From contig JAFCGI010000003.1 in assembly GCA_017608235.1 (NCBI GenBank), positions 44,146-108,145 on the forward strand: a stretch of 64,000 bases of DNA, written 5' to 3'. Positions 4,180 through 61,385 of this stretch are shown one piece after another. A program made the position numbers and the translations under genes. Each line of letters begins with the position of its first letter. Positions within the stretch are counted from its first letter, which is position 1. This DNA comes from Candidatus Pacearchaeota archaeon (GTDB lineage Archaea; Nanobdellota; Nanobdellia; UBA10117; JAFCGI01). The notes below the pieces were generated by a model. It was given only the letters and a program-made list of their open reading frames with translations, made no database searches and was not told where the DNA came from.

Positions 4180-4252
4180 GGGGTCATAGCACAATCAGGC
4201 ACTGCGGCCGGCTCCAGACCGGCTGATCTGGGTTCAAATCCCAGTGACCCCA
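4180..4252 (+). tRNA. tRNA-Trp (anticodon CCA), no intron
   Basis: Manual cloverleaf. Acceptor GGGGTCA pairs with TGACCCC. U8. Anticodon stem GCCGG/CCGGC with loop CUCCAGA. T-arm CTGGG-TTCAAAT-CCCAG. Discriminator A. GC-rich island in AT-rich DNA. Confidence 0.8.
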
Positions 4253-4442
4253 CTCTTACTTTCTAGTTTATAATAATTAATAAAAAGGCAGAAATCCTTA
4301 TTTTTAAAAATTAACTCTTCCGCAATGTAAAATAAGTGTCAGCATTGATAAGGAAGGGCTACGCATAGCTATTTTGGAGTAACAAAAACCGAAAACTATT
4401 TATAGCTTTCATTACTAAAAAGTGTTATCCAACTAATGCTTT

Positions 4443-5804: not shown

Positions 5805-8800
5805 ATGGCCGCTAAAAAAGGACATCTAAGCAGCATAGTTTTTTTTATATTAACTATATTTTTAGCTCCTTTTTTATCACATACTGCATATGCCTTTGAG
5901 GCAGTTTCTGATGACATTAGTACATATACTTGTCCCAGTAATACTAACATATTCATAATATCTGTTAAAAATGCAGATGTATCAGATAGTTACACCGTAA
6001 CATTGTCTGGAAGTGCAGCAAAATGGGCCGTAGCAGCTCCCTCAGGTTTCGTTTTAGGTCCACAAAAATCAAAGGATATATATGTTTATATAACTCCAAG
6101 CAGCCTTGCACTTCCAGGCACTTATGATCTTATAATAACAATAAATGCTGAAAATTCTGGAACAAAACAAATAAATCACAAAATATATGTTAATGATTGC
6201 CATAAAATATCATTAACATCAGTACAATCCTATATTAAGACATGTGCTTGCACGCTTTCTAGTTTTGATCTAAATTTAGCAAATAATGGTCAATATAGAG
6301 AATTATATGATCTTTCTTTATCAGGAAGCGGTGCAAAATGGGCTAGTCTATCTCAAGAAGTAACCATGATAGACAAGGGCGAAGATAAAGATCTAAAATT
6401 ATATGTTGCAGCTCCTTGTGATAAAAAAGGTAAATACGATATAAATGTAATCGCAAAATCAAGAGATAGCAATACATTCGCAAATAAAAACCTTGAATTT
6501 GAAATAGAACCTTGTTATAATTATGAAGCAGTTCCTGCAGTAAATTTCTATGAATTCTGTGAACATTCCCAAGTTAAGATTCCTATAGATATTAAAAATA
6601 CTGGAGTTAGAAATAATACATTCAAATTAAGCCTAACTGGACCTGCTTGGTCTGCACTAGAAAAATCATCTCTTGATCTTCTCCCAGATCAACAAAACCA
6701 ATCAAAGCTAATATTATTTCCAGATTATGGAGTTCAAGGAAACTATAAACTTGTTGTTAATATAGAAGATGAGCTTACTAAAAACAAAAAATCTCTTCCT
6801 ATAGACATTAAAGTAAAGAAATGTCATGATATTGATCTAGAAATCGGAACTACAGAAGATATTCTTTGCCCTGGCTCAGAAGAAATCTATGAATTAAGTC
6901 TAGAAAATAAGGGAGAATTTAATGATGAATATATTTTATCAGTAGACGGAGCAAGTTGGGTAAAATTAGAAAAAACATTAGTAAGTCTTGATGCTGGTAA
7001 CACTGAAAAAATAAATCTTATTGCAAATCCTAGTACAATCGACATTCCTGCAGACTATAATTTAGATATTTTTGCTAGATCTAAACACTCTCCTTTGATA
7101 TATGATCATGTACCATTAGACATAACTCTAAAATCTAATCTAAATTGTTTTGGAGTTGAACTATCTGCACAACAAAATAAAATAGAAGTTCCATATGGAG
7201 AAGGATCACTGATTCCCATAACCATTCAAAATAAAGGACAAGAAGAAAAAGAATTTCTATTAGATATTTCTGGAAACGGTGCTAGTTATGTACAACTAAA
7301 CCCATCAACCATTAAGATAAAACCAGAAAAACTAGAAACAGTCCACGCCTATATAGCAGTTCCAAAAGAAGCATTACTTGGAGAATATAAAGTAACTATA
7401 ACTGCAAGAACCAAAGATAATTATCTATCAAGCTCAGACTCAATCCAAATAAAAGTAATTGAACCACAAAAGTCAACCCAGACAGATAATACTACACAAG
7501 AAAAACCATCAAATTCTTTTTTAGTATCATTAATTTCATCTTTTAGCAAACTAGGAAATAAAATATCGGGTTTCTTTGCAGGAATTTTCACAAGCGAACC
7601 ACAAATCCCAGACACAGAAGAACCTAAAGAAACTTCATCAGAAAAATCTGAAGCTTCTGAGCAAGAACAAAAACAAGAAACAATTGAACTTGAAACTCAA
7701 ATTCTTGAAGAACAACAATCAGAAGAAAAAGAACCTGAAGAACAAGAATCAGAAATCACTGAGCCAGAAGTTCAAGAACAAGAGCCAAAAATAACAGAAG
7801 AGCTAAACAACACTGAACAAGAGCAAGAAAAGGTAAATGAATCAGAATCTATAGAACCTGAAGTTAACAAATCAGAATTAATAGAGCCTGAAGTTAACAA
7901 ATCAGAGACCTATAAGTCAGAAGCAAATGAATTAGAATCTATAGAACCAAAAGCAAATAATACAGAGCAGCAAAAAATAAATGAAACCAAAACAGAACAA
8001 CCAGATACTAATAAATCAAAATCTCAAGAACCAGAAGAACCAGAAGAACCAGAAGAACCTCAAGAACCAGAAGAACCAGAAGAACCAGAAGAACCAGAAG
8101 AACCAGAAGAACAAAAATCTGAAGAGAAAGAACCAGAGCCAATAATAGAAGTAAAAGAAGAATTTATTGAGTTATCAGAATTTACAAAGTCAACATATCA
8201 TATAGAAGGAAGCACTACAAAATTTATATATAATGATCAAGAACATACAGCAACTCTAGACACTGTAGATGAAACATCTATTATATTAATTATAGAATCT
8301 GATCCAATCTATCTAGACATGGATGTTGGAGATACAAAACAAGTAGATCTTGATAATGATAGCATAAATGATCTTGAAGTAACTCTAAGAGGCATAAAAG
8401 ATGGAGTTGCAGATGTTTCTTATAAAAAATTAGTCCCTATATCAGATACAGAAGAATCTCAGAAATCTCAAGAATCAGAAAAAGAGCCAATGAATAATAA
8501 TCCAGCATTCTTAGCAATTACAGGAATGTTTGCAAATATAGGAACATCAGCTAACAATGTATATAATACTATATTATCAAATAATTTCATAGATGAATAC
8601 AAATACTTTATTTTAGCAGCTATAATAATCTTGATTGGAATTATACTTATTAATCTATATAGTAGAAAATTCACAGACTATCTTGAAGAAGAGTTTGATG
8701 ATCAACTTGAATCAAAGGAAAAACCAAAAAAGATTAAACCTAAACCTAAATCTAAGGTACCAAAAGAAAAGAAATCTTTTTGGACAAAATTTAATGATTT

Positions 8801-9623: not shown

Positions 9624-10544
9624 TTATAACTTAATTTCTAAAAAATCTTTAGCAGCAACTGTATTCTTAAAGAACTGTCTTGCTTCCCGTAACAGAGGTA
9701 AAAGATTTTTATATCTTTGACTGAAATGTGTTAAGATAAGCTTCTTAACTTTAGCTTTCTTAGCAATCTTAGCAGCTTGCTTAGCTGTTAGATGCTTTCT
9801 TTCTTTAGCCATATCTTTATGATCACTCATAAAAGTACTCTCACAAATAAACACATCAGAATCCATAGCTAATCTAACTAAATTATCACAAACACCAGTA
9901 TCAGCAGCATAACTTACCTTCTTGCCTGGCTTTTCTATTGTCGCCTTGCTAGCTTTAATCAATTTCCCTTTATATCTAATATCCTTGCCATCTTGCAATT
10001 TTTTAAGTATAGGATCCTGGCCTAAGCCAAACTTCTTAAGATAATCAAGATTTATTTTTCTCTTGCCTTTTTCTTGAAAAGCAAAACCAAGACAAGGTAT
10101 AAAATGATCTAATTTAGTAGCATACACCTCGTATTCATCTTTTTCACAAATCTTATCTACTGCTTTAGGAACTATTTCTTTTATTTTAATAGGAAATTGC
10201 ATGCATTTTTGATTAGATCCTTCGCATATACTGAATGATTTTAATAAATAACTAAAGAAAGTCTTAGTTCCTTTAGGACCATAGATCTCTAAAGGCCTAG
10301 TTCTTTTAGCCTGAGTTAAACTCTGAATCAATCCAGGCAATCCAAGTATATGATCTCCATGCCAATGACTTATAAAAATCTTAGAAACCTTCATAATACT
10401 CTCTCCAGAAATCGTAAATTGTCTTTGAGTTCCTTCACCACAATCAAACAATAATCCTTCACTGCCATATCTAATCAAGATTGCAGAATGATTTCTTTCT
10501 TTTGTTGGAAATACACTACTAGTCCCTAAAATCACAATTTTCAT
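9624..10544 (-). CDS. rnz: Ribonuclease Z (tRNA 3' endonuclease), metallo-beta-lactamase fold
   Basis: Motif ISHWHGDHILGLPGL (HxHxDH). Length 306 aa fits the short-form RNase Z. Conserved GDT..AAD and C-terminal HFS. Confidence 0.85.
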   Translation of the reverse strand: MKIVILGTSSVFPTKERNHSAILIRYGSEGLLFDCGEGTQRQFTISGESIMKVSKIFISHWHGDHILGLPGLIQSLTQAKRTRPLEIYGPKGTKTFFSYLLKSFSICEGSNQKCMQFPIKIKEIVPKAVDKICEKDEYEVYATKLDHFIPCLGFAFQEKGKRKINLDYLKKFGLGQDPILKKLQDGKDIRYKGKLIKASKATIEKPGKKVSYAADTGVCDNLVRLAMDSDVFICESTFMSDHKDMAKERKHLTAKQAAKIAKKAKVKKLILTHFSQRYKNLLPLLREARQFFKNTVAAKDFLEIKL

Positions 10545-10579: not shown

Positions 10580-11077
10580 TTACCAAGGTTCTTTCTTAAG
10601 ACCTAATTTATATCCCAAATAATTAGCAAGCAAATGCACTGAAGGTGTTAAAAACACTAACACTAAGAAATAACTATAGTTAATTTCCATAATAACACTC
10701 GAAAATATAAATGCACCAATCAAGAAATCTAACTGATCCAATAAAATAGCTCTTTCACCTCTTTCTAAACCAAATCTTCTTTTAACAAAACTTCCTACTA
10801 AATCTCCTATTAATGCTCCAGAAGCTAATAATATTCCTAAGATCAAGGTTCCTTGCAAAAACCCAATAATACTCCCAGCAATTATTCCAAATATCAATCC
10901 TAGCCAGGTTTTACCTGCCCCAAATAATTGTTTTCTACCATATTTTATTCCAAAGTCTACAGGCTTATTATATTTTTTAGCAAACTTAGTTTTAGCAACA
11001 AATACAGGAAACATATTTGCTGTATAAGCAGGCAAAATAAACCAAATCGCTCCAAAGATTAGTTTAAGGATATCCAT
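10580..11077 (-). CDS. carS: CDP-archaeol synthase (CarS, DUF46 family)
   Basis: About 165-aa polytopic membrane protein with PAYTANMFPVF, GKTWLGLIFG and GDLVGSFVKRRFGLERG…LDQLDF, which are CarS hallmarks. The ATG at 11077 is preferred over the upstream TTG because a TATA-like TTTATAT sits about 23 nt upstream, implying a leaderless mRNA. Confidence 0.65.
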   Translation of the reverse strand: MDILKLIFGAIWFILPAYTANMFPVFVAKTKFAKKYNKPVDFGIKYGRKQLFGAGKTWLGLIFGIIAGSIIGFLQGTLILGILLASGALIGDLVGSFVKRRFGLERGERAILLDQLDFLIGAFIFSSVIMEINYSYFLVLVFLTPSVHLLANYLGYKLGLKKEPW

Positions 11078-11101
11078 GCTAGAACAAAACAAATTAATCA
11101 A

Positions 11102-11195: not shown

Positions 11196-11789
11196 ATGGT
11201 TAAGAAAAAAACTAAATTCAAGAAAAAAGTTTCAGAAACTAAAGAAACTAAAATTAAAGAAGAAAAACTTAAAGGTTTGCTAATAAGTAACAGAACTATT
11301 GTATCAGAAAACATAGAATTAGCTCAAGCTCTCTATGATAGAAGTAGCTTTGGAGAATTTCATGGAAGAGAAAAAAAACTAGAACTATCATTAGTTGAAT
11401 CTCTTTTCCTTTTAGAAAAGAAAAAACTAGATCTATATTTTAAAGGAAAAAAGTTAAACTTCAAAACTTTTTTAGCTAAAGCCACAAGACTAGAAAAGAA
11501 TTTCTGGAATAGATTTTCTGTATATAGAGATTTTAGAAATAGAGGATACATCCTTAAGACAGCACTAAAGTTCGGTGCAGACTTTCGTGTATATCCTAGA
11601 GGAGTTAAGCCTGGGCAGCAGCATGCTAAATGGATTTTATTCTGTGCCTCAGAGGGAGAAAAACTCACTTGGAGGCAATTCTCTGCTATGAATCGTGTAG
11701 CTCACTCTACAAGAAAGAAACTTTTAGTAGGAATCGTAGACGATGAAGGTGATGTTACTTATTATCTTATAGGATGGATCAAACCATAA
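11196..11789 (+). CDS. endA: tRNA-splicing endonuclease, catalytic-type subunit (short, alpha-type)
   Basis: C-terminal catalytic domain KFGADFRVYPRG…QQHAKWILFC matches the EndA Y…H…K catalytic region. Length 197 aa with an N-terminal Lys-rich extension. Confidence 0.65.
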   Translation: MVKKKTKFKKKVSETKETKIKEEKLKGLLISNRTIVSENIELAQALYDRSSFGEFHGREKKLELSLVESLFLLEKKKLDLYFKGKKLNFKTFLAKATRLEKNFWNRFSVYRDFRNRGYILKTALKFGADFRVYPRGVKPGQQHAKWILFCASEGEKLTWRQFSAMNRVAHSTRKKLLVGIVDDEGDVTYYLIGWIKP

Positions 11790-11936
11790 ATATAAACTAA
11801 AATATATTTTATTTATATTATGTATATGAAATTGTTCATGTTCATAATTTTAATTTGAAACCAATAATAAATTATAAAATCCACTAAAAAACTTGATTAG
11901 AAAAAACTTATTAAAACTAAACTTATACTTGTAAAT

Positions 11937-13433
11937 ATGGCAGATATCTCTAAAATCCACACAATCTCAGATTTAGCAGCATTTTGTAAGAGAAAAGGCT
12001 TTGTATTTCCTAGCGCAGAAATCTATGGAGGTTTTTCAGGATTCTTTGATTATGGGCCTCTAGGCATAGAACTTAAGGAAAACATCAAAAAAGATTGGTG
12101 GAAAACTTTTGTTCAATCTCGTCAGGATGTTATTGGAATCGATGGCTCAGCTATAACAAATCCTAAAGTTCTAGAAGCTTCAGGGCATGTAGCTGGATTT
12201 AATGATCTTTTAGTAGATTGTAAAAAATGTAAATTCAGAGAAAGAGCTGACCATCTTATAGAAGATCTTCTCAAAATACCTGCAGAACATCTTTCTGCAA
12301 AACAAATCCAAAAGCTTATAGAAAAACATAAAATAAAATGTCCTAAATGTAAAGGTCCTCTTTCAGAACCAAAACAATACAACACAATGTTCAAAACATA
12401 TGTAGGCCCAGTTGAACAAGATTCTTCAGTAGCATACCTACGTCCTGAAACAGCTCAATCTATTTTTTCTAATTTTGAACTCATACAAAAATCTTCAAGA
12501 GCTCAACTTCCATTTGGTATAGCCCAGATAGGAAAAGCCTTCCGCAATGAAATTTCTCCTAGAGATTTTCTATTTCGTATGAGAGAATTTGAGCAAATGG
12601 AACTTGAGTTTTTCACGCACCCAAAAAAAATCAATGATTGCCCTTTCTATAATGACATCCAGACTAGTTCTGTGAACATGCTTTCAGCAGAAATGCAAAA
12701 TAAAGGCAAAAATCATAAAGCAATGACTATAAAATCAGCAGTTATTAAGAAAATAATTAAGAATAGATGGCATGCATATTGGTTATATTCACAATATCAA
12801 TGGTTCCTAAACTTAGGAATCAACCCAAAAAATCTTAGAATTCGCGAACATAAAAAAGAAGAGCTTGCTCATTATGCTAAAGCTTGTTTTGATCTTGAAT
12901 ATAAATTCCCATTTGGCTGGAAAGAACTTCAAGGAATGGCTGATCGTGGTCAATTTGATTTAAGTCAACATGGAAAATATTCTGGAAAAGAAATAACATT
13001 TTTTGACCAAGCTAAACAGGAACATGTTGTCCCTTATGTAGCTGCAGAACCTTCGCAAGGTCTAGACCGTGCTTTTTTAGCATTTCTAATAGATGCATAT
13101 ACTGTTGAAAAGGATAGAGTAGTCTTGAAATTAAATCCAAAGTTAGCTCCAATCAAGATAGCTATTTTTCCATTAGTAAACAAAGACAAACTTCCAGAAG
13201 TTGCTATGAAAATCTATAATTTGCTAAAGGATAAATATCCTATTTTTTATGATACCTCTGGTTCTATTGGAAGAAGATATAGAAGAATGGATGAATCTGG
13301 AACTCCTTTTTGCTTAACCATAGATCATGACACATTAAAAGATAAAGCAGTAACAGTTCGCCATAGAGACTCTATGAAGCAGAAGAGAGTTAAAATAAAA
13401 GATCTAGAAACTTATTTTTTAAAATTAATATAA
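11937..13433 (+). CDS. glyS: Glycyl-tRNA synthetase (archaeal/eukaryal alpha2 type)
   Basis: Class II motif 2 FRNEISPRDFLFRMREFEQMELEFF. The GlyRS N-terminus (FVFPSAEIYGG, GPLG) and insertion domain are recognisable. Length 498 aa. Confidence 0.85.
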   Translation: MADISKIHTISDLAAFCKRKGFVFPSAEIYGGFSGFFDYGPLGIELKENIKKDWWKTFVQSRQDVIGIDGSAITNPKVLEASGHVAGFNDLLVDCKKCKFRERADHLIEDLLKIPAEHLSAKQIQKLIEKHKIKCPKCKGPLSEPKQYNTMFKTYVGPVEQDSSVAYLRPETAQSIFSNFELIQKSSRAQLPFGIAQIGKAFRNEISPRDFLFRMREFEQMELEFFTHPKKINDCPFYNDIQTSSVNMLSAEMQNKGKNHKAMTIKSAVIKKIIKNRWHAYWLYSQYQWFLNLGINPKNLRIREHKKEELAHYAKACFDLEYKFPFGWKELQGMADRGQFDLSQHGKYSGKEITFFDQAKQEHVVPYVAAEPSQGLDRAFLAFLIDAYTVEKDRVVLKLNPKLAPIKIAIFPLVNKDKLPEVAMKIYNLLKDKYPIFYDTSGSIGRRYRRMDESGTPFCLTIDHDTLKDKAVTVRHRDSMKQKRVKIKDLETYFLKLI

Positions 13434-17332: not shown

Positions 17333-19432
17333 ATGGTAAGAAGCTTGTCTACTAAACAGATTTTAGTACTTATTTTGCTAGTCATAATTATAATACCTCT
17401 AGCATATATATTCGCTCCAGCAGGCAAAGTTCCAACCCTAGTCTATAAAGAAGTAACCGTTAAAGTTCCAATCATAAGTTATAAGGAACCAACAGCTGAA
17501 TCTGGAATTACAGGCTATGCAAGTCAAGAAATAGTGCAAGGAACAATAACTTTAGAAGTTGGATCTCTTTTAGATATAAATCAAGTTAATGCAAATCCAA
17601 ATATAATAAACCCTACTCAACAAATAAACTTCACAGCAAATATTACATCTGCATATGCAATAAATCTAGTAACTCTGGAATTTGAAAACACATTATATGT
17701 AATGACCAATTCATCCTCAGATATATGGTATTATGATGCTCTTGACACTAATATTTCATTAGGAACTTATAATTTTACAATATATGCAAAAGATGCCACT
17801 AATTATACAGTAAGCAAGACAGGAAATTTCACAGTAACAGATGAACCACTACCAATAACCTGTCTATCACAAATAGGAGATGCAAAGATAAAGATAGAAA
17901 CAAATCTAAGAGATTATACAGTAATTCCTAAACAAATTCTACCTATAGAAAATTTCACGGCAGAAGTTTATAATAAAACTTGTATTGATAATTTAGCTGG
18001 ATATGATTCTGATACATGGAGCAAATTAAAAATCAAAGATCTTGACTTTAGAAGACAATATCTAAAGGACATTAGAGATAATTGTCCACTTGTAACTTGT
18101 TGTATAACAGGTGCAGATGGAAAATGTTTAGCTAATACTACCAGCCCATCAACTAAAGATGTTGTTATATTTGGACTATCAGATTATGAATTACTTAATA
18201 AAGATATTAAAGCATTTATAATACATAAAAATCCAATTTCAATTAAAGATGGAATCACTAAGAAAGCAAAACTTTTTATGAAAAAATTCTGGTCTTCTGT
18301 ATTTGGACAAGTAATATATATGCCACAATCTCACAATACACTAATTGGTTCTGAAATAGATATAATCTCAGATGACTTTATGTTTTCTGAGAATTATCCT
18401 GAAGACTTATTTTATGATATTATCTTTATAACCAATGATACTTGGGATGTCAACATATCTGCAACAGCACCTACAGAATATACTTGTACTGATTGCGAAA
18501 CAGATTTAAATATAAATAGTACTGAAGTCAATATAACTCTTGATTTGGATCTTATTGATTCTACTAGCTTAGATTCTGATATTTTAGACGAAGGAATAAA
18601 TATAGAGCATGGTGAAATAAATATATCTGCAACAAGTTATAATAGCTCAAACACAACCCAAAACTATATAGAATATTTCCCATTTTATGGAATCATAGCA
18701 TCTTCAATACAAGTAACAGAAGCAATAGCAACTCCTGAAGAGGTAAATGCAGGAGATGCAATAACTTTCAAGGCAAAGATAGTTAAACTAGGATTATTTG
18801 ATGTAGATACTGCTACTTTACAAATACAAGGCACCAAATATACTATGACTAAATCAGGAAATATTTGGTATTATAATACATTTAACACAAACATTGGTGC
18901 AGGCACATATACATTCAAAGTATATGCTAATGATACATCAGGAAAAGATACCTTTCCTAAATATGGTATATTTACAATCACAGCAGAAGAAGTTCCTGCA
19001 GAAGAACCAACACCAGGAAGAACAGGACTTATAACTCCTTCTGAACCAGCACCTCCAACTGAACCAGAAATTCCACCAGAGGAAGAAGTTCCATTAGAAG
19101 AGGAAGAAGTAATTCCTCCAGAAATTCCAGAAGTACCTTTATTTGGTCAGGCAATACAAACCCTTCTAGATCTAAGAGACTTAGGTACTTTGCGCATAAC
19201 ATTAGCTATAATAATTTGGATAGTTACAATAGCTCTAATCTGGTGGCTATGGCTGCTCTGGAAGAGAAAAAAAGAAAAAGAAAAAGAGAAATATGCTCCT
19301 AAAAAAGAAGAACCTTGGCCTCCAGACATCATAAAACTAAAGAGCCATTCAGATGAAGCAAAGAAGCATTATTCATCTGATTTATTTATTTTATATTCTC
19401 ATATAAAAAACTTCTTTAGAAATAAAAAATAA
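17333..19432 (+). CDS. Large surface or membrane protein with an N-terminal signal anchor, a Pro-rich stalk, a TM segment and a Lys-rich tail
   Basis: N-terminal TM ILVLILLVIIIIPLAYIF. N-glycosylation sequons (NxT/S) are abundant. PAEEPTPGRTGLITPSEPAPPTEPEIPPEEE stalk. TM LAIIIWIVTIALIWWLWLLW followed by KRKKEKEKEK. The track ORF starts at TTG 17315. Confidence 0.5.
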   Translation: MVRSLSTKQILVLILLVIIIIPLAYIFAPAGKVPTLVYKEVTVKVPIISYKEPTAESGITGYASQEIVQGTITLEVGSLLDINQVNANPNIINPTQQINFTANITSAYAINLVTLEFENTLYVMTNSSSDIWYYDALDTNISLGTYNFTIYAKDATNYTVSKTGNFTVTDEPLPITCLSQIGDAKIKIETNLRDYTVIPKQILPIENFTAEVYNKTCIDNLAGYDSDTWSKLKIKDLDFRRQYLKDIRDNCPLVTCCITGADGKCLANTTSPSTKDVVIFGLSDYELLNKDIKAFIIHKNPISIKDGITKKAKLFMKKFWSSVFGQVIYMPQSHNTLIGSEIDIISDDFMFSENYPEDLFYDIIFITNDTWDVNISATAPTEYTCTDCETDLNINSTEVNITLDLDLIDSTSLDSDILDEGINIEHGEINISATSYNSSNTTQNYIEYFPFYGIIASSIQVTEAIATPEEVNAGDAITFKAKIVKLGLFDVDTATLQIQGTKYTMTKSGNIWYYNTFNTNIGAGTYTFKVYANDTSGKDTFPKYGIFTITAEEVPAEEPTPGRTGLITPSEPAPPTEPEIPPEEEVPLEEEEVIPPEIPEVPLFGQAIQTLLDLRDLGTLRITLAIIIWIVTIALIWWLWLLWKRKKEKEKEKYAPKKEEPWPPDIIKLKSHSDEAKKHYSSDLFILYSHIKNFFRNKK

Positions 19433-19441
19433 AATAGAAGT

Positions 19442-19575
19442 GGGACCAGTGGGAATTTCTCAACCACGGAATTTTCCGTCAATGCTTTTGTTCTTACAGT
19501 TACAAAAGGGTTGTTTTGAACCCACGACACCTAGATCTTCAGTCTAGTGCTCTCCCAGTCTGAGCTATGGTCCCC
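19442..19575 (-). tRNA. tRNA-Phe (GAA) with an about 60-nt intron at T-loop position 59/60
   Basis: Minus-strand cloverleaf. Acceptor GGGACCA pairs with TGGTCCC; disc A. D-arm GCTC-AGACTGGGA-GAGC. Anticodon stem CTAGA/TCTAG with loop CUGAAGA. T-stem GTGGG; TTCAAA [60-nt insert] T; CCCAC. The insert begins ACAACCC and ends GGTTGAGAAAT. Confidence 0.7.
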
Positions 19576-19619
19576 TACTTAAAACACATACTTTTAGTTT
19601 TATAAAAGTATCGAGTCTT

Positions 19620-20315
19620 TTATTTTCTTAAGTATTCTTTACGTTTTTTTTCATCAAATCTTTCAATAGAATATCTAAGCATAACCCTAGGCATTTCTTT
19701 GTAATACTTGTCTAAAAATTTCTCTTCAGCTTTTTGATCTCTCTTGCCAACTTCTCTAAGCATCCATCCTACAGCTTTATGAATTAAATCATGTTTATCT
19801 CTAAGTAAAATCTCAGAAATTTTTAACATATCTTTAAAATCATTCGCCTTAATAAATTTATATGTAGCTAGAATAGAAATCCTGCGCTCCCATAGATTCT
19901 TTGATACTGCTAATTTATATAAAATAGTTCTATCCTTATCTAAAAGAAAGTCCCCAAGAATATTTGGCGCGCTTAAATCTACAAGATCCCAATTATTAAT
20001 TTGTTTTGTATTTTTAAGATAAAAATCAAATATTTTTTTCTTTAATTTAGAATTTCCTTTAGAATATTGATGCATAAGAATAAGCAAACTAACTAATCTG
20101 TATTCATGTATCTTGCTTTTTAATAAAATCTGAATATCTTTCAAAGATAAATCATAATATTTTCTAGCAATTTCTCTCTGTACCGGAACTTTAATCCCAA
20201 GGAATATATCACCTTCTCCATATTCTCCTTTACCAGTCTTAAAAAATCCAGAAAGAAGTTTTGCTTGATTTTTATCTTCTAATTTTTTAAGATCTTTCTT
20301 TACAGCATTTAACAT
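19620..20315 (-). CDS. DNA alkylation repair protein (AlkD-like HEAT-repeat DNA glycosylase family)
   Basis: N-terminus KLLSGFFKTGKGEYGEGDIFLGIKVPVQREIARKY is typical of the DNA_alkylation family. Length 231 aa. Confidence 0.7.
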   Translation of the reverse strand: MLNAVKKDLKKLEDKNQAKLLSGFFKTGKGEYGEGDIFLGIKVPVQREIARKYYDLSLKDIQILLKSKIHEYRLVSLLILMHQYSKGNSKLKKKIFDFYLKNTKQINNWDLVDLSAPNILGDFLLDKDRTILYKLAVSKNLWERRISILATYKFIKANDFKDMLKISEILLRDKHDLIHKAVGWMLREVGKRDQKAEEKFLDKYYKEMPRVMLRYSIERFDEKKRKEYLRK

Positions 20316-20316
20316 T

Positions 20317-20925
20317 TTACTTTAAAATTTTATCAATTTCTTTTTTAAGATACTTTATATCATGTTCTTGAGAATCATAATGAATTCCTTTAAATCCAGC
20401 TTTCTTAGCCATATCTACATGATATTCATCATTATCTATATATAATATTTCATCGGCAGACATCTTTATTTTATCAGTTATAATCTCAAAGATCTTTGTA
20501 CCATGTTTATCAGTTTTCACATCTCCAGAACTAATTAAAACATTAAACATATTTTCTAACTTAAATTTCTTTTTTAGCAAATCAAATCTGTATTTAGAAC
20601 TATCAGTTATAATTCCTAATAAATATTTGCCAAGATATTCTTTCTTAATTAATTCAAATATTTCTTCATTTAATCTAGCAGAACTCACAGCATAATCCCA
20701 AATCTTCATAGGAATTTTCATACCAAGACCAGCACACATTCCACTAATCACATGTTCTAATTTAATCATACTAATATTAAATGCATGCGCATACTTGCTA
20801 TAGGTTTCATTAACCAAATCATCTGAAACTCCAAGTTTCTCAGCTAAAGCCTTAACTATCACAATCCTTCCAGATCTGTCTAAAGTTAATACGCCATCAA
20901 AATCAAAAAATATTGCCTTAATCAT
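20317..20925 (-). CDS. HAD-superfamily hydrolase
   Basis: Motif I AIFFDFDGVLT. The K/S-G-D-x-D pattern occurs later. The internal ATG (MIKAIFF) is preferred over the track ORF start at 21036. Confidence 0.65.
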   Translation of the reverse strand: MIKAIFFDFDGVLTLDRSGRIVIVKALAEKLGVSDDLVNETYSKYAHAFNISMIKLEHVISGMCAGLGMKIPMKIWDYAVSSARLNEEIFELIKKEYLGKYLLGIITDSSKYRFDLLKKKFKLENMFNVLISSGDVKTDKHGTKIFEIITDKIKMSADEILYIDNDEYHVDMAKKAGFKGIHYDSQEHDIKYLKKEIDKILK

Positions 20926-21083
20926 TTCCTTTTTTTTACCTCTTTCTTTTTTGATGAAACCTTTTTTCCAAAAGTTTCTAAGAAAGGTTAAAGCGCTGGG
21001 AGAGGGACATTCCGAACCCTTGGTACATTCTTTCATGAACGTTTCTTTCCAAGAAAGGTTCTTTTGAACCCTCGCATCCTTGC

Positions 21084-21439
21084 GGAAACTAGCTTAGCAG
21101 GCCTACGCTTCATCCCAAGCTATAGGATTTAATAGCGCCATACCAGACTAGGCGATCCCAGCATAATAAAGTGGAGCATGCTTTAGGATGGACATAAACA
21201 ACATTTACTGTGATCCTAATAATCAGCTCCACCCCGTATCTCCAAAGCACCCCAAAACCAAGTTACGGTTGCTCCATTCCTGGCCTGGCCGGATTAGCTT
21301 GAAAGAGAGGCCCTTGAAGGCGAGGCTTCGACGCCAACTAAAAGGGCAGCAAGCATTCTTTACGCCGCTCCCAAAGCTTCATCTTCCCCTAAAGCGCATT
21401 GAGGATTACAGGCCCGCGCTAATGGCCCAGACTAGCCCC
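21084..21439 (-). ncRNA. Signal recognition particle RNA (archaeal 7S/SRP RNA); ends approximate
   Basis: GC-rich island on the minus strand. 5' GGGGCUAGUCUGGGCC…GGGCCUGUAAUCC is an Alu-domain-like UGUAAU. Helix-8 region CAGGCCAGGAAUGGAGCAACCGUAAC…GGGGUGC matches the archaeal CAGGCCCGGAAGGGAGCAACGGUAG…GGGUGCC. A 3' GCUAGUUUCC can pair with the 5' GGGGCUAG. The overlapping 90-aa ORF (21188..21460) is rejected. Confidence 0.6.
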
Positions 21440-21485
21440 ATAAAAAACACTTTTTATTGATTTAAAAACCTTATCCTTATATAAT

Positions 21486-38214: not shown

Positions 38215-38333
38215 TGGGCCTACTGGGAATTTCTCAGCTATAGGGGTTTCTACTAATGGTTTCCCGAAAAACTGTATCGAACCCAGGTCTTTTGGTCCGC
38301 AACCAAACATTCTATCCACTAGACTATAGGCCC
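38215..38333 (-). tRNA. tRNA-Arg (GCG) with an about 47-nt intron at T-loop 59/60
   Basis: Acceptor GGGCCTA pairs with TAGGCCC; disc A. Anticodon stem TTTGG/CCAAA with loop UUGCGGA. T-stem CTGGG; TTCGAT [insert ACAG…GCTGAGAAAT] T; CCCAG. The D-stem is weak (GTCT/GAAT has one mismatch and two G-U). Confidence 0.6.
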
Positions 38334-38452: not shown

Positions 38453-38607
38453 TAGCCCCGACCGGACATTCTCAACCGCGGATTTCTTCCGCCAATGCTT
38501 CTTTCTAAGAAGGGTTGTTTCGAACCAGTGTCCTAAGGTCCAGAACCTCAGATGCTTGACTTATAGATCTAATAATTTTTTTATTAAATTCACTACACTA
38601 CGGGGCT
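38453..38607 (-). tRNA. tRNA-Gln (CUG) with a 52-nt T-loop 59/60 intron and an additional about 30-nt AT-rich insertion in the D-loop
   Basis: Acceptor AGCCCCG pairs with CGGGGCT; disc A. D-stem GTGT/GCAT. Anticodon stem TGAGG/CCTTA with loop UUCUGGA. T-stem ACTGG; TTCGAA [ACAACCC…GGTTGAGAATG] T; CCGGT. The D-region insert forms the hairpin TTAATAA-AAAAA-TTATTAG. Confidence 0.5.
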
Positions 38608-60059: not shown

Positions 60060-60623
60060 ATGTTTAAAAAAATAAGTTTTGCTTTAGGTATGAAGAATAA
60101 ATGGGATAAACTTATAGATGAGATAAATAAAGGATTCAGACTAACAAAGCAAGACATGATTTCTAATTTTTTTGAAGTTAGACAAAATCGAGAATATATA
60201 CTTAAACAACATAAACATATTAATTTACTCACAAATGAGATAATGAAGTTTAGACATGAAATAGAAGATCTAAAGAAAATCGCATTACATCGCCCTCAAT
60301 CTTATCAAGAAGATTATGAAATAAGCTCACCAACGCCTGTACTTAAAGAATCTATGGCAGAACTTAAGAAAACAATACCGCAAGCTAAATATCAAACAAT
60401 AACAAACTCAGAAAGAGCTGTTCTTTCAGTTTTATTTGATGCTGAAATGCCTCTAAGCTATGAAGTTATAGCACATAGATTAAATATCAGTCCAAACAGT
60501 GCCAAAGTACATATCAATTCCCTAAAGCGAAAAGGCTATCCTTTAGAAACGTTCCAAGGACCTAAAAAATCAAAACTTTATGCAATAAGAAATACAGAAA
60601 AAATTAGACAATTTTATGGTTAA
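60060..60623 (+). CDS. Winged-helix DNA-binding protein (hypothetical regulator or site-binding protein)
   Basis: C-terminal wHTH ERAVLSVLFDAEMPLSYEVIAHRLNISPNSAKVHINSLKRKGYPLE. N-terminal coiled-coil. Confidence 0.5.
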   Translation: MFKKISFALGMKNKWDKLIDEINKGFRLTKQDMISNFFEVRQNREYILKQHKHINLLTNEIMKFRHEIEDLKKIALHRPQSYQEDYEISSPTPVLKESMAELKKTIPQAKYQTITNSERAVLSVLFDAEMPLSYEVIAHRLNISPNSAKVHINSLKRKGYPLETFQGPKKSKLYAIRNTEKIRQFYG

Positions 60624-60696: not shown

Positions 60697-61272
60697 TCAG
60701 ATCATTTCTTGAATTTTTTTCTTATATTCCTCCTCAATATCTATTTGACTTGGAGTACCATAAACATCAATAGTAGTCTTAATGCTGCTATGCCCTACTA
60801 TTTGTTGAACATATTGCAAAGGCATGCCTGCCTTAAGAGCATTTCTTACAAAACTATGTCTAAACAAATGTGGGTTTATCTTATTTCTTCCCGGATTTGG
60901 ATGATTTACTCCTGCCCTTTTAGCACATTTGCATACTATCTCATTAATTTGTTTCAAACTTAATGGTCCAGGATAACTTTTAGCACTCGTGAATACATAT
61001 CCCTGTTTCCTATTCCCAAGAAGTTGCTTAATATCCATAATAGTTAAATTATCTATTGGCACAGTTCTAGGCTTAGCCCCTTTTCCTTCTTTAATATAAA
61101 TATGATTTTTTTCAAAATCCACATTTTCAATTTTCAAATTTCTGAGTTCAGCTCTTCTAATCCCAGTTCTAGAAAAAACCTCAATAATCACCCGATCACG
61201 GAATGTTGGAGCATTTTCTATTATGCTTTTGATCTCATCAGAACTTAAACAATAAGTACTCTCTTTGGCCAT
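60697..61272 (-). CDS. Tyrosine recombinase/integrase, catalytic domain only (about 191 aa)
   Basis: R…K…HLFRHSFVRNAL…VGHSSIKTTIDVYG (R-K-HxxR-H-Y). ATG at 61272 preceded by TGGAGA RBS; the track ORF extends to 61302. Confidence 0.8.
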   Translation of the reverse strand: MAKESTYCLSSDEIKSIIENAPTFRDRVIIEVFSRTGIRRAELRNLKIENVDFEKNHIYIKEGKGAKPRTVPIDNLTIMDIKQLLGNRKQGYVFTSAKSYPGPLSLKQINEIVCKCAKRAGVNHPNPGRNKINPHLFRHSFVRNALKAGMPLQYVQQIVGHSSIKTTIDVYGTPSQIDIEEEYKKKIQEMI

Positions 61273-61290
61273 ATTTATTCTCCAATGTAA

Positions 61291-61385
61291 TTTACGTAAC
61301 ACTTCTATAAAAAGATTACGTTAACGTAACTTTTTACCTTTTTTACGTAACAGAATAGCCAAAATGTAACCTTTTCGTTACTTTT
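61291..61385. repeat. Cluster of TTACGTAAC / GTTAACGTAAC palindromic motifs in the recombinase promoter region
   Basis: TTTACGTAAC (61291), GATTACGTTAACGTAAC (61315) and TTTTACGTAAC (61342). Inverted half-sites GTAACC…CGTTAC at 61365..61381. Confidence 0.75.

Follow-up and report, generated by a model that had tools for sequence, protein, structure and literature searches.

A tRNA-Phe(GAA) gene with a predicted bulge-helix-bulge intron at T-loop position 59/60, and introns at the same site in other tRNA genes of a DPANN-like archaeon

The junction between nucleotides 59 and 60, in the T-loop, is listed among the recurrent non-canonical sites of archaeal tRNA introns (PMC4090602). Within the DPANN, the pre-tRNA-Cys of ARMAN-2 contains a 13-nt intron at 59/60 that is cleaved in vitro by the organism's epsilon2 splicing endonuclease (EndA) (PMC3239211; Hirata et al. 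2012, PMC3488258), and its tRNA-Pro is interrupted at both 53/54 and 59/60 (PMC3239211, PMC3488258). The ARMAN-2 Cys junction is of the relaxed hBH (bulge-helix-loop) form, and it is processed by a three-unit epsilon2 enzyme equipped with a specificity loop. In the Thermoproteales the mean intron load reaches 0.84 per tRNA gene (PMC8450103), and the occurrence of similar intron sequences in different tRNAs has been described there as 'intron transposition', as relayed in later papers (Sugahara 2008; Fujishima 2010, via PMC4090602, PMC4033280). These TACK organisms, in which related introns occupy many positions, possess an (alpha-beta)2 heterotetrameric EndA with a Crenarchaea-specific loop. 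Nanoarchaeum equitans, by comparison, has trans-split tRNA genes and an alpha-beta heterotetrameric EndA. The Lys-rich loop of this enzyme is implicated in broad specificity (PMC3488258).

Here we describe a tRNA-Phe(GAA) gene with an insert at 59/60 in a stretch of archaeal DNA of 64,000 nucleotides, the whole of which is referred to as the window. The locus resembles ARMAN-2 in the 59/60 position, the DPANN host and a bulge-helix-bulge (BHB) type junction that employs the T-stem as outer helix. Unlike those of ARMAN-2, however, the window introns are 47-60 nt in length, display both bulges and both flanking helices, contain one or two hairpins and are accompanied by an alpha4-like EndA that lacks loop insertions. 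The heavy intron load (six in five genes) and the presence of similar introns in unrelated tRNA species are reminiscent of the Thermoproteales, although the host in this case is DPANN-like and the related copies are all at 59/60. As with the canonical intron at 37/38, which adopts the strict hBHBh' form, EndA is predicted to cut in two 3-nt bulges with 3-4-3 geometry prior to ligation; in contrast to the canonical intron, it is the T-stem and T-loop that carry the motif, and at the fourth position of the central helix two purines face each other, a mismatch that we attribute to the conserved R57. With N. equitans the locus shares a phylum-level neighbourhood (Nanoarchaeota/Nanobdellota) and an EndA catalytic unit of which the N. 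equitans protein is the closest solved relative, but the window genes are contiguous and the Lys-rich loop is absent. The intron class, the 59/60 position and paralogous introns all have precedent, while in the open-access papers searched we found no description of a long, structured, single-site intron family in a Woesearchaeota-like genome.

The gene was delineated by ARAGORN after in-silico splicing and by synteny with four related loci (L021-L024). An earlier note, made from the DNA alone, had found the right locus but placed it at 19442-19575, one base off, and had left its minus-strand orientation unstated. The parts of the gene are as follows:

19441-19574, minus strand: tRNA-Phe(GAA) gene, 134 nt including discriminator A73
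19515-19574, minus strand: 5' exon, 60 nt, positions 1-59, ending GUGGG UUCAAA
19455-19514, minus strand: intron at 59/60, exactly 60 nt, ACAACC...GGUUGAGAAAU
19441-19454, minus strand: 3' exon, UCCCACUGGUCCCA, consisting of U60, the T-stem 3' strand CCCAC, the acceptor 3' strand UGGUCCC and A73

On the minus strand 19441-19574 reads GGGACCAUAGCUCAGACUGGGAGAGCACUAGACUGAAGAUCUAGGUGUCGUGGGUUCAAA / 60 nt / UCCCACUGGUCCCA; the 5' exon terminates in ...GUGGGUUCAAA, and CCA is not encoded. ARAGORN called no tRNA in the unspliced gene, and the Rfam tRNA model matched its 5' part only (positions 7-64), with a score of 30.4 bits against a threshold of 29. When the 60 nt were deleted ARAGORN reported a 74-nt tRNA-Phe(GAA) in which all stems are fully paired and the 7-nt T-loop is UUCAAAU, the predicted spliced junction being GGUUCAAA|UCCCAC. 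The insert therefore interrupts a complete tRNA, its exact removal restoring a standard cloverleaf. The earlier proposal of a tRNA-Phe(GAA) with a 60-nt BHB-type intron at 59/60 was upheld by splicing and ARAGORN, by the BHB check and by the T-arm of an orthologue, as were its two components: that the exons form a perfect cloverleaf once about 60 nt are removed, and that the insert begins ACAACC and ends GGUUGAGAAAU. TATA-like A/T-rich boxes are present upstream, and T-runs downstream, of the tRNA genes, features that carry little weight at the G+C content of the window (about 30%).

We consider it highly probable (about 0.88) that the archaeal tRNA-Phe(GAA) gene at this locus is functional and that its intron at 59/60 is protein-spliced, cleavage, ligation and the fate of the intron being predicted. 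This reading draws on the anatomy of the gene, on BHB geometry at the boundaries that the cloverleaf and the orthologues require, on covariation of the flanking helices and on the presence of an EndA gene, each of which is an observed feature of the DNA.

In a BHB each strand comprises an outer helix, a 4-nt central helix, a 3-nt bulge that is cut after its second base, and the other helix. Of this geometry the cited papers supply the 3-nt bulges and the four-position helix; the cut after the second bulge base was assumed. The standard geometry was applied to the intron boundaries, which the cloverleaf had fixed on its own, with the following outcome:

T-stem GUGGG/CCCAC, 5 bp: outer helix h
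19517-19520, minus strand: 5' strand of the central helix H, U54 U55 C56 A57, pairing with AGAA at 19457-19460
19514-19516, minus strand: 5' bulge A58 A59|A, between H and h', with predicted 5' cleavage after 19515
19509-19513, minus strand: helix h', CAACC, pairing with GGUUG at 19461-19465 (C-G, A-U, A-U, C-G, C-G)
19454-19456, minus strand: 3' bulge A U|U60, between H and the T-stem, with predicted 3' cleavage between 19455 and 19454

Each junction thus falls in a 3-nt bulge, AA|A on one strand and AU|U on the other, with a four-position helix between them. Three positions of H are Watson-Crick pairs (U54-A, U55-A and C56-G) and the fourth is an A57.A mismatch, and so the strict hBHBh' form is not attained, even though the bulges and the flanking helices, of 5 bp each, are present. 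As modelled, the Phe junction comes close to a canonical hBHBh', from which a single non-standard pair separates it. The minimum free energy fold of the precursor (-43.4 kcal/mol, z = -2.85) keeps the four tRNA stems and contains a symmetric 7x7 internal loop, the CAACC/GGUUG helix and two hairpins (CUUUUGU/ACAAAAG and ACGGA/UCCGU) that are enclosed by h'. Folding of the exon-intron junctions had been put forward in the earlier note as a check, and it returned a near-canonical BHB at the boundaries fixed by the cloverleaf. The splice sites do fall in bulges, as that note had claimed, the 5' site in A58 A59|A and the 3' site in A U|U60. CAACC and GGUUG do pair, as seen in the minimum free energy folds and in covariation, but they form the inner flanking helix h' and not the central helix of the BHB for which they had been taken. 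The description of the motif as 'relaxed' holds mildly, in that both 3-nt bulges and both flanking helices are in place and only the fourth pair of H is non-standard.

From this geometry a route to the mature tRNA can be proposed. In the precursor the T-stem GUGGG/CCCAC would run on into the BHB, where U54 U55 C56 (A57) are predicted to pair with the (A)GAA at the 3' terminus of the intron to generate the central helix; this helix would be flanked by the A58 A59|A and A U|U60 bulges, and CAACC/GGUUG would close the intron side. In each bulge the cut predicted for the EndA of 11196-11789 follows the second base; an RtcB-type tRNA ligase encoded outside the window would join the exons to create the normal T-loop UUCAAAU, and the 60-nt structured intron would be released and probably circularised. 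Points that count against this scheme are that H, as modelled, offers three Watson-Crick pairs and an A.A, and yet EndA looks like a narrow-specificity alpha4 enzyme, and that no ligase gene was found in the window.

It could be argued that the intron is real and spliced but that the motif should be read differently, as a 3-bp helix with a 4-nt 5' bulge, which would move the cuts and the T-loop by one nucleotide, to 58/59 or 60/61. The non-standard fourth pair, in which A57 faces A, invites such a reading, and the A and U runs at the junctions permit other 7-nt loops, UUCAAUU or UUCAAAA. However, UUCAAAU, which is the T-loop of the Phe orthologues and of the relatives' tRNA-Ser, is obtained from cuts at 59/60 only, and the Arg, Gln and Ser introns described below conform to this register although their junction bases differ. 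A shifted register is, in our view, very unlikely. Insertion between T-loop nucleotides 59 and 60 accordingly rests on the one register that yields UUCAAAU as in the orthologues.

Two further readings dispense with protein splicing. In the first the insert is retained, giving a tRNA with an expanded T-loop or an RNA with another, non-tRNA role. The insert is indeed structured; a T-loop of 67 nt, however, is incompatible with the conserved tertiary contact between the T-loop and the D-loop that is established for tRNA, and retention leaves both the BHB geometry of the junction and the EndA gene in the window unexplained. We regard this explanation as scarcely credible. The second makes of the insert either a group I or group II intron that splices itself or a scar left by the integration of a mobile element. 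Integration into tRNA genes is common, and the window contains a tyrosine recombinase gene at 60697-61302. The core of a group I or II ribozyme, however, occupies hundreds of nucleotides and is recognisable by covariance models. At 60 nt the insert is far too short for a ribozyme intron, and no ribozyme family in Rfam matched 19380-19640 at E<=10. The only non-tRNA Rfam matches in this interval, Plastid-ycf2 and Bacteroid-trp, were far below threshold (E 3.4 and 6.9) and were taken as chance. Nor does the locus display a duplicated tRNA 3' segment or a direct repeat, as a mobile-element scar might, and there are no free-standing copies in the window. The probability of this second reading is close to negligible. 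The tyrosine recombinase/phage-integrase-family gene (60697-61302, minus strand, 201 aa) lies beside a gene for an HTH protein (60060-60623), and no link between it and the tRNA genes was found. An additional function for the intron was also considered. Box C/D sRNAs, such as the one encoded in the intron of Haloferax tRNA-Trp, have a C box, RUGAUGA, and a D box, CUGA. The 60 nt of the Phe intron contain neither UGAUGA nor CUGA (CUGU only), and no C/D-box family in Rfam was matched; a box C/D sRNA was rejected on these grounds.

The gene order RFC-L / SRP RNA / tRNA-Ser / tRNA-Phe is conserved in L021-L024, and partly in L025, which enabled the window genes to be compared with orthologues in relatives. 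None of the syntenic orthologues of tRNA-Ser(GCU) (five loci) or tRNA-Phe(GAA) (four loci) contains a T-loop intron, and in alignments the window inserts sit precisely between UUCAAA and UCC. The T-loop UUCAAAU is common to all four orthologous tRNA-Phe genes and to the tRNA-Ser of four relatives. In the Woesearchaeota sequence CP070803.1 (L023) the T-arm and acceptor 3' strand of tRNA-Phe, GUGGGUUCAAAUCCCACUGG, are identical to the predicted spliced product; this gene has an uninterrupted T-loop and is split in its anticodon arm, by inserts of 41 and 37 nt. The absence of a T-loop intron from the relatives' Ser and Phe orthologues favours a recent, lineage-specific gain, and the T-loop introns of the window are thus probably gains of this lineage; on the sequences compared, the distribution of inserts shows an apparently rapid turnover of intron positions between related genomes. 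In L023 a free-standing ORF with a LAGLIDADG domain (11705-12503) is situated between tRNA-Ser and tRNA-Phe. As regards the host, a protein search of the genome contigs with RFC-L identified no close relative; the best homologues of RFC-L and EndA were labelled Candidatus Woesearchaeota, Nanoarchaeia or DPANN, the closest RFC-L being about 54% identical. These labels, together with the archaeal SRP RNA of the window, point to a divergent Woesearchaeota-like member of the DPANN as the probable host.

The orthologues also bear on the possibility that this tRNA-Phe gene is dead, having lost its function when 60 nt were inserted into its T-loop, with a working tRNA-Phe elsewhere in the genome. Such a gene would be missed by standard finders, as the Phe gene is, and could tolerate a mismatch in the BHB central helix; it should be emphasized, too, that our tRNA inventory covers the window only. 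The exons, however, are flawless, no difference separates the T-arm and anticodon arm from those of a relative's functional-looking orthologue, and the locus occupies the conserved syntenic position of tRNA-Phe. In addition, the acceptor stems of the four Phe orthologues (GGGACCA/UGGUCCC, GGAGCCA/UGGCUCC, GGGAACG/CGUUCCC and GGAGUUG/CAACUCC) differ by compensatory changes that span the insert, and the 14-nt 3' exon has therefore co-evolved with the 5' exon. Covariation of this kind, to judge from the aligned stems, argues strongly against a pseudogene. Inactivation would also require three other tRNA genes to be dead in the same manner, each interrupted at that very nucleotide and each with the helix geometry seen in Phe. 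We thus view a dead gene as highly improbable, and prefer the reading of a functional, spliced tRNA-Phe(GAA).

The endonuclease that this reading requires is represented in the window, 8 kb from the tRNA-Phe gene:

11196-11789, plus strand: EndA, 197 aa, a single alpha unit with N- and C-terminal domains, Pfam PF01974 (6.7e-30) and PF02778

Among proteins of solved structure it comes closest to the alpha subunit from N. equitans (3IEY_A, E 2e-32) and the alpha4 enzyme from M. jannaschii (1A79, E 1e-30). The catalytic residues Tyr133, His143 and Lys174 do not vary when the protein is aligned with EndAs of solved structure, and the complete triad is therefore present. The acidic loop VDDEGD aligns with VDADGD of M. 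jannaschii, and the catalytic domain is collinear, with no loop insertion. Indeed the 6-aa Lys-rich loop that precedes the catalytic His in the N. equitans type is absent from the window protein and from its Woesearchaeota homologues, while the N-terminal tail of the window EndA is Lys-rich. The features used to define the alpha4 type were a unit of about 180 aa, N- and C-terminal domains, the triad, an acidic L10 loop and no CSL-, ASL- or NEQ-type insertions; judged by these the window EndA looks like the single-unit alpha4 type, for which narrow specificity would be expected. No RtcB ligase was found among the window ORFs scanned. Kaneta et al. (PMC5829648) describe DPANN organisms with alpha4-type EndAs, increased tRNA disruption and incomplete tRNA sets. 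The combination of a near-strict BHB with an alpha4-like EndA makes the window a test case for how intron position and the specificity of the endonuclease evolve together.

The Phe gene is not the sole interrupted tRNA gene in the window. Three more, all on the same strand as Phe, were traced through a sub-threshold Rfam match and a scanner that looks for a T-stem, UUCRA, an insert, the complementary T-stem strand, an acceptor 3' strand and, upstream, an acceptor 5' strand. The tRNA genes other than Phe, together with the SRP RNA, are listed below; the interrupted genes were established by splicing and ARAGORN and by the BHB check, with Gln and Ser located by the scanner:

4180-4253, plus strand: tRNA-Trp(CCA), the sole uninterrupted tRNA gene in the window
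20994-21162, minus strand: tRNA-Ser(GCU), with 55 nt at 59/60 (21008-21062) and 30 nt at 29/30 (21103-21132)
21170-21442: archaeal SRP RNA, 127.5 bits
38215-38333, minus strand: tRNA-Arg(GCG), with 47 nt at 59/60 (38229-38275) and no second intron
38453-38607, minus strand: tRNA-Gln(CUG), with 52 nt at 59/60 (38467-38518) and 30 nt in the D-loop (38561-38590)

The Arg, Gln and Ser genes become ARAGORN-valid tRNAs only once spliced, and alignment with orthologues demonstrates that the Ser T-loop insert is a precise insertion. Four of the five window tRNA genes (Phe, Arg, Gln and Ser) thus contain introns of 47-60 nt at 59/60, which is the commonest position among the six introns of these five genes. 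The earlier statement that introns at 59/60 are rare is not sustained, as the site is a documented, recurrent one (PMC4090602) and is occupied in most of the tRNA genes of the window. The uninterrupted gene is tRNA-Trp, which harbours a canonical intron in many other archaea. Three features of the additional genes may be recorded here. The D-stem of tRNA-Arg(GCG) has a single Watson-Crick pair (G.U, U-A, C x A, U.G), the D-loop intron of tRNA-Gln has an HBh'-type junction with a weak outer helix, and tRNA-Ser(GCU) starts 7 nt downstream of the SRP RNA, a spacing that suggests the two are co-transcribed.

These genes largely escape routine annotation. Gln and Ser go unseen by ARAGORN, and Rfam does not report them even at E<=5; Arg, too, is overlooked by ARAGORN and scores 26.4 bits with Rfam, below threshold; and Phe is barely at the Rfam threshold. 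The BHB models of tRNAscan-SE were trained on introns of Crenarchaeota/Euryarchaeota and Thaumarchaeota (PMC8450103). Of 208 complete Nanobdellota genomes surveyed in 2026, only 96 had the full set of 20 isotypes, and split tRNAs were invoked as a possibility (10.64898/2026.05.13.725050). Hidden genes with T-loop or multiple introns might explain 'missing' isotypes in Nanobdellota, and are a simpler possibility than split tRNAs to test first.

The architecture of the T-loop introns was compared across five examples, the four from the window and one from a tRNA-Arg(CCU) gene of a Woesearchaeota MAG (L007). The latter emerged from a scan for the junction pattern GGTTCRAWACA-N{30,60}-TGAGAAATTCC, which gave nine matches in genome contigs and six in metagenome contigs, approximately the level expected by chance; the single real match was the tRNA-Arg(CCU) locus (L007 = L015). 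Two tRNA genes of this MAG (CAZGVA010000032) are of note, at 2633-2868 and 7793-7955. tRNA-Arg(CCU) has three inserts, in the D-loop, at 37/38 and, with a length of 66 nt, at 59/60, the last of which has the ends ACAG...GCUGAGAAAU that are also the ends of the window Arg(GCG) intron. The exact boundaries of its D-loop intron could not be fitted to a BHB. A second tRNA gene in L007 has about 91 extra nt and is without a T-loop intron, and ARAGORN found neither of the two L007 genes.

Folded independently, all five T-loop introns adopt the same arrangement of T-stem, 7x7 loop and h' helix. The UUC/GAA pairs are invariant in the five, and the base opposite R57 (window positions 19460, 38234, 38472 and 21013, and its L007 counterpart) is in every case a purine, A or G, and never the pyrimidine with which H would have four pairs, the fourth position of H being G.A or A.G in the introns other than Phe. 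Standard BHB geometry fits each of the four window T-loop introns, as well as the Ser anticodon-stem and Gln D-loop introns. In the junction constructs 96.9% of cells pair, and six pairs exhibit double changes, three of them in h', such that three of the five h' pairs covary across the five introns. Among 500 shuffled controls none reached the observed pairing, none the covariation score and one the number of double-change pairs, while sliding the structures by 1-3 columns reduced pairing to 20-55%.

Beyond this common architecture, some of the introns appear to be related in sequence. To exclude similarity imposed by the junctions, the junction-constrained ends were removed, the interiors aligned and P values derived by shuffling. 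The Phe and Gln interiors align in 24 of 29 columns (P < 0.0005) and those of Gln and Ser in 12 of 13 (P about 0.0015). Taken whole, the introns of Phe and Gln share 74% identity, compared with 56% for the mature tRNAs. The interiors of the Arg(GCG) intron and of the L007 Arg(CCU) intron showed no significant similarity to those of Phe, Gln and Ser, with which they share junction motifs only. As tRNA-Phe, tRNA-Gln and tRNA-Ser are ancient paralogues, shared intron sequence means copying between genes; the similarity of the interiors thus implies that the Phe, Gln and Ser introns were probably copied between unrelated tRNA genes. No free-standing copies of the introns were detected in the window or in the relatives' loci. 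How copying might have occurred is a matter for speculation, with reverse splicing and short-homology conversion across GGUUCRAAUCC as candidate routes. Homologous 59/60 introns in Phe, Gln and Ser that are absent from orthologues offer a clean, datable example of the gain of tRNA introns by copying.

A wider proposal can be advanced tentatively, at somewhat less than even odds: BHB introns specific to the T-loop may form a family, with the Phe intron among its copies, that has multiplied by copying itself between unrelated tRNA genes in a single Woesearchaeota-like lineage, with 59/60 as its dominant site, at a density like that of the Thermoproteales, and with a loop-less, alpha4-like enzyme as the only visible EndA. 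If true, such a family would break the accepted tie of heavy non-canonical intron loads to (alpha-beta)2, epsilon2 or loop-bearing EndAs, and would provide a concrete explanation for the 'missing' tRNAs of many Nanobdellota genomes. It should be emphasized that the Phe gene alone is a textbook-compatible case of a documented class to which its context adds value. That value resides in how densely homologous T-loop introns occur here, in their absence from orthologues, in an EndA of alpha4-like type and in the escape of the genes from routine annotation.

Several minor observations concern the surroundings of these genes. A HAD-type hydrolase-like ORF (20317-21036, minus strand) overlaps tRNA-Ser with its N-terminus, and its true start is probably the internal Met of MIKAIFFDFDG; a 90-aa ORF (21188-21460, plus strand) antisense to the SRP RNA is probably spurious. 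Near EndA, on the opposite strand, is a gene for an RNase Z-like metallo-beta-lactamase (9624-10544, minus strand), the two being separated by a CDP-archaeol synthase gene (10580-11101, minus strand). In the relatives L016 and L018, the EndA neighbourhoods of which contain one tRNA only, RNase Z and EndA are directly adjacent, and a class II aminoacyl-tRNA synthetase gene comes next both in the window and in L016. The RNase Z/EndA region may therefore constitute a small tRNA-processing neighbourhood.
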